Shown here: piece after piece, positions 53,077-64,000 of the stretch
Layout of the letters: each line of letters begins with the position of its first letter
How positions within the stretch are numbered: the first letter of the stretch is position 1
Source of the DNA: Bacteroidales bacterium
GTDB lineage: Bacteria; Bacteroidota; Bacteroidia; Bacteroidales; WCHB1-69
Assembly: GCA_017540505.1 (NCBI GenBank)
Contig: JAFYAW010000017.1
Location: 6,476 to 70,475, forward strand
Reading direction: 5' to 3'
Length of the DNA: 64,000 nucleotides
Position numbers and translations under genes: made by a program
Notes under the pieces: generated by a model
The model's input: the letters and a program-made list of their open reading frames with translations, nothing else
Told to the model about the DNA's origin: nothing
Databases searched by the model: none

Positions 53077-56000
53077 TTATTCTGATATGAAGTAGTTCCT
53101 CTTCACGCATCTGATACTGTATCCAAGTCCCTTGTTGGCATCTTGGAACAGACCCGTGTCACAATAGTAGTTGAGGACGAAGTTCTTGGCCATGGAGGAG
53201 CCAGTGCTGTAATCAACAGCCCAGAAGTGTGTCTCACCCAAAAGGTTGAAATATCTGTCCAAGCTGCCGTCGTAGTAGCCGGCGCCGTAGGCGTTGAACA
53301 GGTTGGGCGCAATGCCCTGCTTGCCAGGCAGCCATACGAGGGTGGAAGGACTCTTCACCAGGCCGGCAACACCGCCGGAGGCGACATACATGTTCATGTA
53401 GTCTTCCACCGTAGGCAGGGCCCATCCGGCAGGACAGATGCCCTGCACGTATGTTCCTGTAGGACACAGGGAGTCAACGGGCATTGCTGTGTCGTCACCT
53501 TCGGGCACGCGCGCCGCCGAGTACCAGCTGTAGAGTTTTCCGTAAATGTTCTCGAGGGAGTCGCTATCGGAGTAGCGCGTGTATTGGGCGATAGGCGTGC
53601 CGTCGCTGTAGTGCTCGCTCACATGGTTGACGAGTGTCCAACAGTCACAGCCGATATAGGCGGCCGGGTAAACGTTGCCGTCAAAGTCCCTGACGTAATT
53701 GCACGGCAAGCGTTGCACCGTCACGGTTTGTGTGCAGGTCTTCATCACGTGGCCGCAGTTGTCAAGCAGCTTCCAGGTGATATAGTGGGTGCCCACTGGC
53801 AGCGGGTTCTGGCGGGCCAGGTCGTTGACAATGGTCGTGTTATCGACCGGCGGAGTTACCGTGGCCATCTCTGGCAGGGTCAACATCGTATCGCAACGTC
53901 CGTACCAGAGCGTGATGGTCAGGTCGGCCGGGCAGATGAGCGGTGTGGTCACATCCGTCACACGGAGGGTGCCGTCCACATATCTGATGGAGTAGCAGTC
54001 TGTCACATTTTCTGCATCGGATCCTGTGCCATGCATGATGACGGCGTTGGCAACTTCGCTGGCACTCGAGCCCACGCACAGTTGCGAACCGCTCACGTCG
54101 ATGTGGGCGAGGTTGTCAGTGGCGGCTATGCTGCCGCTTGTGATGTCGTATCCAGGAGCTGGCAGGTCGGTGATTTGCAGCGGGGTGCCGTCATAGGCCT
54201 TTTCGCCGCTCTTGGCGGTGAACTCGATCGGGCGCACGATGATGTGCAGCACCACGTGGAACTCGGGGGTGTAGTTCGCTGTCACGCTGGCCGGACCGAA
54301 ATCGCTGTTGTAGGCGCGCAGCTCGTCCATCGTGCGCAGGAACCGGTTGTCGCGGCAGTAGTAGTCGCCCACTCTGTAGCCGTCGGTGGTGACTGTGCCA
54401 GAGGTGAACGCATCGCCATTCTCCAAACCGATGTAGGTCAGCTGGTTGTAATATACCTTGAACTCCTCGCCGTCATAGACCTTCGTGAATTCACCCGTGA
54501 TGATCAGTCTCTTCTTGTTGATCACCTGTCTCAGGTCGTAGGTTACAATATAGTTGCCGATGCCGTTGTGTGTGGCGAACGGAGTCGTCACATCGGCGGA
54601 GGCGGAAGCCACGCTGTCGATGTAAGTGTTTACATCAGCCGCGGAGCTCGTCACCACACCGGCAGTGATGTAGTCGTTGGGCACCAGGCCGATGATCGTG
54701 TAACCGTCGGTGGTGGCCATGTAGTCGCTCACGAACGGTGTAGCGTCATAGACCTTCGCGGTGTCTAGCTTGATGAGCAGTGCGGCGGGTGTCACCGTCA
54801 GGTTGCCGGTTGCCGTCGTCACACAGTAGTTGCCGACCAGGGTCTCGACGCCTGTCATTACAGGCATTCCGTCCACCGTGGCAATCACGTTGGTTTGTGT
54901 GCCGACGTTGGTGATGGTACTGCCTGAGGTCATGGCCACCGTGAAGGTGTGCGTGTCACCCGTCTCAAGTGGCGTGGCCGTGAAGCCGTCATCTGTCAGC
55001 GGTGTGCCGTCGTAGGTCTTGTTATTGCTATTGGCAGTGATGGTGACTTCCTTGCAGGTGACCTCAAGGTTACCGTTTATGATGTTTACGCAGTAGTTGG
55101 AGGCAAGAGCCGGGGAGACGAAATTGTAGTTGAAGGTGTTGGAGATGCTGCCCACATTGGTGATGGAGGCAAAATTAGAGTAGTTCAGGGTTTCACCGGA
55201 AACCATGCCGTCGCCGCCGATGGTCACCGTCTCCTCCTTGAGTTCGGAGCCGTTGTAGGTCTTGCTGGCAGTGCCGCTCGTCAGGGTGATTTTGCGGCAG
55301 TTCACCTTCAGCGTACCATCATTCTTGGTGATGGTGTAGCAACCGTTATCAGAACTGAGCATGTTCTCATCGCCGTGGTAGAGGGTCCAACCGGCCACCA
55401 CGTTGCTTACACCGGTGGTCACATTCTTGACTTCGCCGGAGATGGTCACGTGCAGGGAGTCACCGTTCGGGAAGATGTAGTTGCCGTCGGCGGAGGCAGG
55501 CACCGTGATGGGCGCACCGCCGTCAATGGTCAGCGTGTAGCTCTTCTTCGTGTGGGTGGCGCCATTGTAGGTCCACTCTCCGTCATCTGCGGTGATGACA
55601 ATGGTCTTCGAGACGCATTCCATCGTCAACTGTCCGTTTTCCGTGGCCACACAGTAGTTGTCGGTGGTGGATGCAGGCGTGAAAGTGTAGCTGGTGATAG
55701 CATTGGTCACCGGGCTCTGGCTCGGAAACTGGATACTGCCCTCAATGACGGGATTGACACTTTCGCCGCTCACCATACCGTCACCGGTAACAGTGAAGGC
55801 ACTGCTGGAATGCACATTGCCGTCGTAAGGGATATTGGTAAGAGAAGCTGCCGTGATGGTGATCTCTCTACAGGTCACAGTCAGCATACCCGTGTCAATG
55901 GTCACGCAGTAGTCGGTGGCAACCTCACCGGAAGCCAGGGTGTAGATAAAGGCGTTCTTTATACTGCCCTTGTCTTTGATGGAAGCGAAGTTGTCGTAAG

Positions 56001-64000: not shown

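Follow-up and report, generated by a model that had tools for sequence, protein, structure and literature searches.

How is a giant protein with the modules of a surface adhesin exported and held on the cell when, judged by its sequence, it is neither a lipoprotein nor type IX secretion system (T9SS) cargo, the two kinds expected among large surface proteins of Bacteroidota? The question is raised by a gene at the 3' end of a 64,000-nucleotide stretch of an uncultured rumen Bacteroidales genome (assembly GCA_017540505.1, contig JAFYAW010000017.1, positions 6,476 to 70,475 of the forward strand; hereafter the window). A first-pass annotation had described its product as a giant modular, adhesin-like surface protein without a T9SS C-terminal sorting domain (CTD); stalk modules and a terminal lectin-like domain support that description, and by every sequence test run here the family to which the protein belongs falls into neither of the two expected kinds. 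On balance, and with some reserve, we favour a putative fibrillar adhesin of ~5,200 residues, exported by Sec and signal peptidase I (SPI), with a long beta-sandwich stalk and a lectin-like FISUMP head, whose passage through the outer membrane and anchoring would be set by no known signal. Like the first-pass annotation, we cannot tell from the sequence how the protein would pass the outer membrane.

A giant, intact gene of beta-sandwich modules

Translated in its own frame, 53080-63999 (minus strand) yields 3,640 stop-free codons, and the frame is still open at the window edge, as expected from the earlier description of a single uninterrupted open reading frame (ORF) running off the window. 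The stop codon lies at 53077-53079, and the protein end reads ...GYSIRCVKRNYFISE before it; counted from the first ATG instead, the gene spans 53077..63990 and encodes 3,637 residues. Its parts are as follows, in residues of the window protein.

53077..64000, minus strand: 3' 10.9 kb of the giant gene, 3,640 codons plus stop (in-frame translation), the 5' end being off the window
56923..63999, minus strand: residues 1-2359, ~28 beta-sandwich modules, comprising 9-10 HYR_4C, more HYR-like, PKD, PKD_5, immunoglobulin (Ig)-like and 2-3 SprB (Pfam, self-profiles)
53953..56922, minus strand: residues 2360-3349, stalk of 11 divergent repeats of ~90 residues, likely of MBG/YDG type (K-x-Y-D/N-G periodicity)
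53695..53952, minus strand: residues 3350-3435, HYR-like beta-sandwich, first half of a C-terminal cassette (AlphaFold predicted local distance difference test, pLDDT, ~92-97)
53080..53694, minus strand: residues 3436-3640, terminal FISUMP (Fib_succ_major) domain, predicted C-type-lectin-like alpha/beta fold (PF09603, TIGR02145, model pLDDT 93.8)

Breakage of the ORF by assembly error in the repeats, which the first-pass annotation had raised as a concern, was checked and is not what we found. DNA repeat pairs inside the gene are at best 63-78% identical, which makes repeat-driven misassembly or collapse unlikely, and P0065, a relative with 90.7% identity across window residues 1-3182, is encoded by a single unbroken 15.3-kb gene, carried complete on a 25-kb contig with zero Ns (locus L089). 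The giant gene is real and intact.

Pfam was run on the protein in full and again on it cut into 10 overlapping pieces, and repeats were counted with iterated self-profiles. HYR_4C (PF23237) scored 330.8 bits (E 8e-101, cut-off 27) in at least 7 stretches, corresponding to 9-10 copies by self-profile; SprB (PF13573) reached 34.5 bits over the whole protein against a cut-off of 28, and PKD and PKD_5 matched too, together with several sub-threshold Ig-like families. Merging of the self-profile envelopes yielded ~28 modules in residues 1-2359, consistent with the 'at least 25' Ig/HYR/SprB-like modules counted at first pass, and a super-unit of the form PKD-Ig-SprB-PKD_5-Ig-HYR_4C x4 is present roughly twice within this region. 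The ~990-residue array that follows had been assigned to the MBG/YDG type; its length held up, since the K-x-Y-D/N-G signature recurs through residues ~2360-3349 in 11 repeats of ~90 residues each, whereas the family label was not reached at cut-off, the best single repeats scoring 20.2 bits (YDG) and 20.3 bits (MBG_2) against 25. The label is nevertheless likely, as homologues have PF18676/PF18657 (MBG_2/YDG) matches on record. The array of P0065 is one MBG repeat shorter than that of the window protein. Overall, the window part appears as ~40 beta-sandwich modules, Ig/HYR/PKD/SprB and then MBG/YDG-like.

A C-terminal cassette with a predicted lectin-like end

Similarity to paralogues has a sharp boundary at residue ~3350, where the HYR-like plus FISUMP cassette starts. 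The single HYR-like unit proposed at first pass stands as a modelled beta-sandwich that is recorded as HYR in homologues, although PF02494 remains sub-threshold in the window protein itself (E 0.05). The FISUMP domain, at residues 3440-3633, exceeds both of its cut-offs (PF09603 67.1-70.4 bits against 33.9; TIGR02145 55.6-60.1 bits against 41.65) and shows two conserved motifs of the family, GKLYSWY and CPxGWxLPT, along with its conserved cysteines; the second motif is one that we take to be common to lectin folds of the DUF1566 and FGE types. Modelled with AlphaFold, the last 307 and the last 205 residues gave mean pLDDT values of 92.1 and 93.8, and the last FISUMP strand lies ~6 residues before the chain end, so both the profiles and the models bear out the statement that the protein ends inside this fold.

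We infer from the models that the fold of the FISUMP domain is C-type-lectin-like. The best PDB fold match of the FISUMP-only model was 8q4e, the C-terminal domain of Legionella Lcl (probability 0.97, E 0.018, 15% identity, template modelling (TM) score 0.31/0.46), a weak match that was followed by other weak matches, to C-type lectin-like domains (snaclecs, CLEC4D) at E 0.1-1. The two-domain model, HYR-like plus FISUMP, returned mostly weak Ig-like matches, and a PDB sequence search with the cassette gave nothing significant. Residues 261-290 of the cassette, near the C-terminus, are the most variable stretch among paralogues, a pattern that fits, and does not prove, a variable binding surface; in related lectin folds, the counterpart of the most variable FISUMP surface would be the region that binds the ligand.

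In published work, Fib_succ_major/DUF1566 domains are classed with the C-type-lectin-type variable domains of diversity-generating retroelement (DGR) targets and are C-terminally exposed (PMC5758913), and in Fibrobacter the domain has been described as extracytoplasmic and suggested as a cohesin analogue (TIGR02145; PMC4704652). The FISUMP end could thus be the variable region of a DGR target, given that these domains are a recognised class of hosts for DGR variable regions, which lie C-terminally in them (PMC5758913, PMC4159848). Within the 64-kb window, however, the last 800 bp have no second copy resembling a template repeat, for which reason we reject this reading, and no reverse transcriptase occurs among the ~40 larger annotated ORFs of the window, both results covering the window and not the gene's 5' side beyond it; we regard the DGR reading as extremely improbable.

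Separately, the last 8 codons of the window protein (53080-53103) and the ends of L007, P0007 and P0010 form a short conserved tail beyond the usual ...SIRCV(K/Q)KK end, with the variants KRNYFISE, KRIYILPE and KRNYVLPQ; it is disordered in the model, and P0065 (91% identical) lacks it and ends ...CVQRR. This tail may be a short linear motif, or meaningless.

N-terminus and full length inferred from relatives

Window residue 1 aligns to residue 1564 of P0065 (5,107 residues as called), whose ORF in L089 extends 18 codons above the called start and so gives ~5,125 residues from the likely start; by this alignment, ~1,563-1,581 codons of the giant gene lie off the window. Two further relatives have 1,605 upstream codons (L001, the orthologue in the yak-omasum metagenome-assembled genome (MAG) RGIG9679, 81% identical) and ~1,639 (L002, in RUG538, 71% identical), and together these alignments put the full protein at ~5,200 residues. 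Because the window-edge DNA has no exact match in GTDB representative genomes or JGI metagenome contigs, the choice between signal peptide and lipobox, which the first-pass annotation had left to upstream sequence, was answered on close relatives.

The signal peptide in L089 reads MGKIYKTTAQKSRRTVSIMSLVLFLIGLAFSTMA/QESD, the slash marking the cleavage site, without a lipobox cysteine, and that in L001 has the same design (...VVIGMILFVVGLVLSTMA/QESG). Both end in ...STMA/QE and, judged by eye on these relatives (91% and 81% identical), are of the SPI type with Gln at +1, obeying the Q-rule of Bacteroidetes, under which Gln occupies +1 after SPI cleavage (PMC5837995). Among 38 complete N-termini of the family, 35 have no lipobox match, most of them resembling SPI signals with A/Q cleavage, and three are lipobox-like. 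Further into the off-window region of relatives, Listeria-Bacteroides (Flg_new) repeats are the sole NCBIfam matches in the N-terminal regions. There was no match to a two-partner secretion (TPS) domain (PF05860) or to any other family in the relatives' first 400 residues, no haemagglutination-activity domain or inverse-autotransporter (IAT) barrel in their N-terminal 1,600 residues, no match to the IAT barrel PF11924 in their N-termini at E<=0.01, and nothing significant in a PDB sequence search with the N-terminal 400 residues of one relative.

Under the adhesin reading, Sec would export the protein by way of a cleavable SPI signal, probably followed by formation of an N-terminal pyroglutamate; the module array would make a long stalk, very roughly 150-200 nm; and the FISUMP domain would act as the binding head at the distal end, its ligand being a glycan borne by plant fibre, by another microbe or by the host. 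The surface may be reached by a general, unlinked pathway that needs no recognised CTD, either independently of the T9SS or through the T9SS by way of an unrecognised signal. Searches of the window protein and of the relatives' N-termini gave neither a known sorting domain of the T9SS nor a lipid anchor, a TPS domain or an IAT barrel, and >70 family loci had no partner gene in common. In a survey of fibrillar adhesin-like proteins nearly half had no known anchor (PMC8286594), and a stalk-type domain content like theirs supports the adhesin reading.

The T9SS of the genome and the search for a sorting domain

The source genome encodes a T9SS, as the following genes in the window show; they are listed with the one CTD-like signal in the giant.

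1898-3175, minus strand: PorV (NF033710, 459 bits)
3247-7083, minus strand: PorU (NF033707, 1,211 bits), with a CTD in its own tail (28.9 bits)
7256-8356, plus strand: PorP/SprF (PF11751, 187 bits)
16703..18508, minus strand: canonical T9SS type A cargo (TIGR04183 53.9 bits and PF18962 48.9 bits at residues 532-601)
61987..62193, minus strand: SprB-repeat module at residues 603-671 of the giant, the sole CTD-like signal (TIGR04183 19.3 bits, cut-off 23; PF18962 18.5 bits, cut-off 27; PF13573 31-34 bits)

On the plus strand, PorP/SprF is followed within 7256-9890 by a 496-residue FGE-sulfatase-domain protein of the PorK/GldJ type, after which no recognisable porL, porM or porN was seen; an M23 peptidase on the other strand follows instead.

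The CTD models were type A TIGR04183, type B TIGR04131 and type C NF033708 in NCBIfam, and PF18962 (type A) and PF13585, CHU_C (type B), in Pfam. At E<=10, the last 140 and the last 307 residues of the giant matched TIGR02145 alone in NCBIfam, with no CTD of type A, B or C: the C-terminus has no type A CTD (TIGR04183/PF18962), Pfam and NCBIfam scans of the whole protein and of the tail gave no type B CTD (TIGR04131/PF13585), and the ChiA-like type C model NF033708 is absent from the last 140 and 307 residues. The scans were able to see such domains, the tails of the 16703-18508 protein and of PorU, both of which had been said to bear CTDs and do, serving as positive controls; NF033708 was in the scanned set, surfacing for the 16703-18508 protein, and PF13585 was found on a neighbour of P0065 in L089, which shows that the recorded annotations can detect a type B CTD. 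The claim that a T9SS-equipped genome encodes this protein without a type A or B CTD is therefore upheld, and holds for type C too. Nor was a C-terminal Ig-like 3+4 beta-sandwich of ~70-100 residues seen, the models ending in an alpha/beta lectin-like fold; a 7-stranded Ig-like sandwich is required of T9SS CTDs (PMC11285876).

Could a CTD nevertheless be hidden in the tail, or the ORF be an assembly artefact or a pseudogene? Three observations might suggest so, namely the CTD-like match at residues 603-671, a 92-residue ORF that overlaps the giant's stop codon in another frame, and the fragmentary state of many database homologues. The match is internal, sub-threshold and ~3,000 residues from the C-terminus, which argues that it is not a sorting domain; we rejected it as such, as it lies below both cut-offs and coincides with an SprB module. 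The 92-residue ORF was likewise rejected as a frameshifted or displaced CTD, because it has no family match, its sequence is non-protein-like and homologues stop at the same position as the window protein. The tail itself matches only TIGR02145, and the modelled fold leaves ~6 residues after it. The fragmentary homologues are accounted for by contig ends and 100-N scaffold gaps, and the relative P0065 is complete. We consider both a cryptic CTD and an artefactual or decayed ORF very unlikely, and the profile searches that the first-pass annotation had proposed (TIGR04183, TIGR04131) gave no cryptic CTD at the tail.

The cassette recurs across a large protein family

Homology was searched with the C-terminal 540 residues and, by phmmer, with the 307-residue cassette against 1.84 billion representative proteins. 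In the cassette search, E<=1e-3 was reached by 7,649 matches and E<=1e-10 by 1,577 representative clusters, and at least 502 loci were found in GTDB species-representative genomes, nearly all from uncultured rumen or hindgut Bacteroidales, with at least 6 in the single MAG RGIG9679. The last ~290 residues, that is, the cassette, recur at 58-95% identity on otherwise different proteins. It is terminal in 124 of the best 150 representative clusters, 21 of these 124 being at least 3,000 residues long and 12 of them 5,000-7,773; among 79 genomic loci, ~65 have an ORF that ends 0-12 residues past FISUMP, four carry FISUMP twice, and just one (L088) continues from FISUMP into a canonical type A CTD, as does the small protein P0063. 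The giant had been presented as an odd exception for lacking a CTD, a view that these counts do not support: a CTD-less end in the HYR-like plus FISUMP cassette is the rule of a large paralogous family, of which the window protein is an ordinary member.

Elsewhere in the family, FISUMP forms tandem arrays of up to 10-16 copies and occurs internally in other proteins. The syntenic orthologue of the giant in RGIG9679 is split over two contigs (L001 and L005) and is 67-81% identical with altered repeat content, against 92% for the neighbouring gene, which suggests that the giant evolves fast, as surface proteins do. All of its domains are known, an NCBI-style name would be FISUMP domain-containing protein, and near-identical sequences are already in public metagenomes.

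Several further members were recorded. A paralogue class of ~2,800-3,000 residues (L003/L004, gene 4134-12577 in L003; L007 1955-10876) has the same cassette and a different conserved N-terminal domain, a signal peptide being followed by ...RKPFQPRTSQYSPD...YTIKGDFTVLGNTNL..., with no Pfam or NCBIfam match in the first 900 residues; the L003/L004 gene is interrupted by a 100-N scaffold gap, and its database entry consists of its last 859 residues. In other Bacteroidales, L071-L087 (for example L077 6664-8857 and L080 6683-8897) encode small FISUMP proteins of 320-470 residues in tandem with paralogues and with a recurring family starting ...(L/M)SYQAVVRN..., arrangements that look like operons distinct from the giants. 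In other Bacteroidota, L088 (6568-6873) and P0063 have a textbook type A CTD right after FISUMP (...NYPNPFNPTT...GIYFYQ...). One family locus, L029 (CAVCMI010000027.1), lies in a bin labelled Oscillospiraceae (Firmicutes), probably a binning error rather than a real transfer.

The recurrence of the cassette invites a different reading, in which it would be a sorting or retention module and not a head: either a non-canonical signal for the T9SS or a general machine, or a dockerin- or lectin-like tether that binds a partner or a surface glycan of the producing cell. The functional ends would in that case be the variable N-terminal regions. In favour of this, the cassette sits on many proteins with unrelated N-terminal regions, at several loci of one MAG, and its position at the very C-terminus is that of CTDs, dockerins and sortase signals; the family genes are scattered without a linked partner, as are those of type A T9SS cargo, and SprB, HYR and PKD stalk modules are typical of T9SS cargo. 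To our knowledge, the T9SS is the only route known in Bacteroidota for proteins of this size. The proposal of TIGR02145 as a cohesin analogue (PMC4704652) points the same way. We nonetheless consider a sorting or retention module unlikely, because the predicted fold is alpha/beta lectin-like and not the 7-stranded Ig-like sandwich required of T9SS CTDs (PMC11285876); because L088 and P0063 have a type A CTD beyond FISUMP, so that in these two the T9SS signal is evidently not FISUMP by itself; because tandem and internal copies are unlike a sorting signal; and because the literature reports the domain from lipoproteins and describes it as a ligand-binding end subject to diversification (PMC5758913). 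More specifically, that the cassette is an unrecognised C-terminal sorting or anchoring module of hundreds of Sec-exported giants (up to ~7,800 residues) in rumen and hindgut Bacteroidales, and hence either a T9SS signal of a fourth kind or a tag for some general route, as yet unrecognised, that moves or tethers very large folded proteins at the outer membrane of Bacteroidota, seems to us quite unlikely.

We caution, with respect to the putative adhesin, that four points weigh against it. A distal C-terminal head needs an anchor at the N-terminus or elsewhere, and searches of the relatives' N-termini found none; a conserved C-terminal module on very different N-terminal parts is what would be expected of a sorting or anchoring module and not of a binding head; the fold matches of FISUMP are weak, with zero PDB matches at E<=1e-3 and TM ~0.3-0.46; and the N-terminus is known from relatives (81-91% identical), not from the source genome itself.

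Neighbouring genes

A gene next to the giant offers a possible transporter.

50249..52822, minus strand: patatin plus POTRA plus Omp85 barrel protein, downstream neighbour (Pfam; probably unrelated)
52905..52940, minus strand: terminator-like hairpin past the giant's stop codon and ahead of the following gene (15-bp stem plus T-run; consensus match only)

Two-partner or type V-like export by this patatin-POTRA-Omp85 protein would accord with a POTRA and Omp85-family barrel encoded 254 bp downstream on the same strand and with the adjacency being kept in RGIG9679, where the gene is syntenic and 92% identical. However, no TPS domain, haemagglutination-activity domain or IAT barrel occurs in the relatives' N-terminal 1,600 residues, the terminator-like hairpin separates the two genes, and the neighbour has its own patatin passenger, a type Vd-like layout. 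Moreover, paralogues and the L089 relative have entirely different neighbours, with none conserved across >70 loci: paralogues adjoin FtsY or opposite-strand genes, and in L089 SufCD/RecA genes lie upstream of the P0065 gene. Since this linkage is lacking in paralogues and in L089, we rejected the neighbour as a dedicated transporter, and we hold export by it to be highly improbable. As an observation in its own right, a genome of the Bacteroidales here encodes a patatin-POTRA-Omp85 fusion, the layout of type Vd (PlpD-like) proteins.

Clustering of all ORFs within ~4 kb on either side of >70 loci gave no conserved partner gene, the recurring downstream ORFs being tandem paralogues or members of the small-FISUMP-protein subfamily. 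With no partner common to these loci, the machinery that handles the giants would be encoded elsewhere and be general. In L089 the convergent downstream gene (20201-23140, minus strand) encodes a 979-residue LTD plus CHU_C (type B CTD) protein, so that canonical T9SS cargo lies directly beside a CTD-less giant.

Farther along the window, 34000-48000 forms a low-GC island (39-45% against 52-57% elsewhere) with glycan- or phosphocholine-type genes, namely a cytidylyltransferase, two Asn-synthase-like genes, LicD, a UDP-GlcNAc 2-epimerase and glycosyltransferases, interleaved with defence-like genes for two Schlafen AlbA_2/HATPase_c_4/Fic-like_C proteins (33129-34928, 45839-47329), an ORF6N protein and an AAA_15/AAA_21 ATPase; the island looks horizontally acquired. 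At 27173-30541 (minus strand) are HydF, an [FeFe]-hydrogenase maturase, and a MiaB-like radical-SAM/TRAM protein, genes that are consistent with an anaerobic gut or rumen organism.

Comparison with known systems

In the literature searched we found no description of CTD-less, SPI-signalled, FISUMP-terminated giants. If they are indeed on the surface, current predictors overlook the signal or route through which rumen Bacteroidales would move proteins of 0.5 MDa out of the cell and keep them there, which, if true, matters for secretome prediction and for the attachment of abundant fibre-associated bacteria; the case for this is built on negative evidence.

The end domain of the giant resembles FISUMP/Fib_succ_major proteins (TIGR02145, PF09603) of Fibrobacter and Bacteroidota, which are inferred to be extracytoplasmic, in passing both cut-offs and in its shared motifs and cysteines. 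The described FISUMP proteins differ from the giant in being mostly small lipoproteins or Fibrobacter paralogues (PMC5758913, PMC4704652), whereas the giant has ~5,200 residues, an SPI signal in place of a lipobox and a FISUMP domain paired with a HYR-like unit as a fixed C-terminal cassette.

The giant adhesins of the T9SS, SprB and RemA of Flavobacterium johnsoniae and GhpA of Aureispira, share with the giant their size class, a Sec signal, arrays of SprB/HYR/PKD/Ig-like modules and a T9SS in the genome, which the window protein's genome bears, and GhpA fragments were among the weak fold matches to the Ig-like part of the model. These three terminate in a CTD, of type A or B, in contrast to the giant, for which neither a CTD (type A, B or C) nor a linked partner was seen. 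A linked PorP/SprF-like gene is usual for type B cargo (PMC10202324).

A lectin-like end on an extended stalk is also found farther afield. The Legionella pneumophila collagen-like adhesin Lcl, with a DUF1566-type C-terminal domain (8q4e) that binds glycosaminoglycans, bears its lectin-like head at the C-terminal end of a repetitive stalk, as proposed here, but is small, has a collagen-like stalk and comes from a gammaproteobacterium, and its structural match to FISUMP is weak (E 0.018, 15% identity). Intimin and invasin, which are inverse autotransporters, also have an Ig-like array capped by a C-terminal C-type-lectin-like domain, and intimin D00-D0 was among the weak fold matches of the two-domain model; unlike in these proteins, neither an IAT beta-barrel nor LysM was found in the N-termini of the giant's relatives, and the two are not homologous by any test run. 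Finally, fibrillar adhesin-like proteins (Monzon et al. 2021, PMC8286594) resemble the giant in combining a repeat stalk with a terminal putative adhesive domain and no known anchor, and the commonness of this last feature among them tempers the anomaly of the giant.

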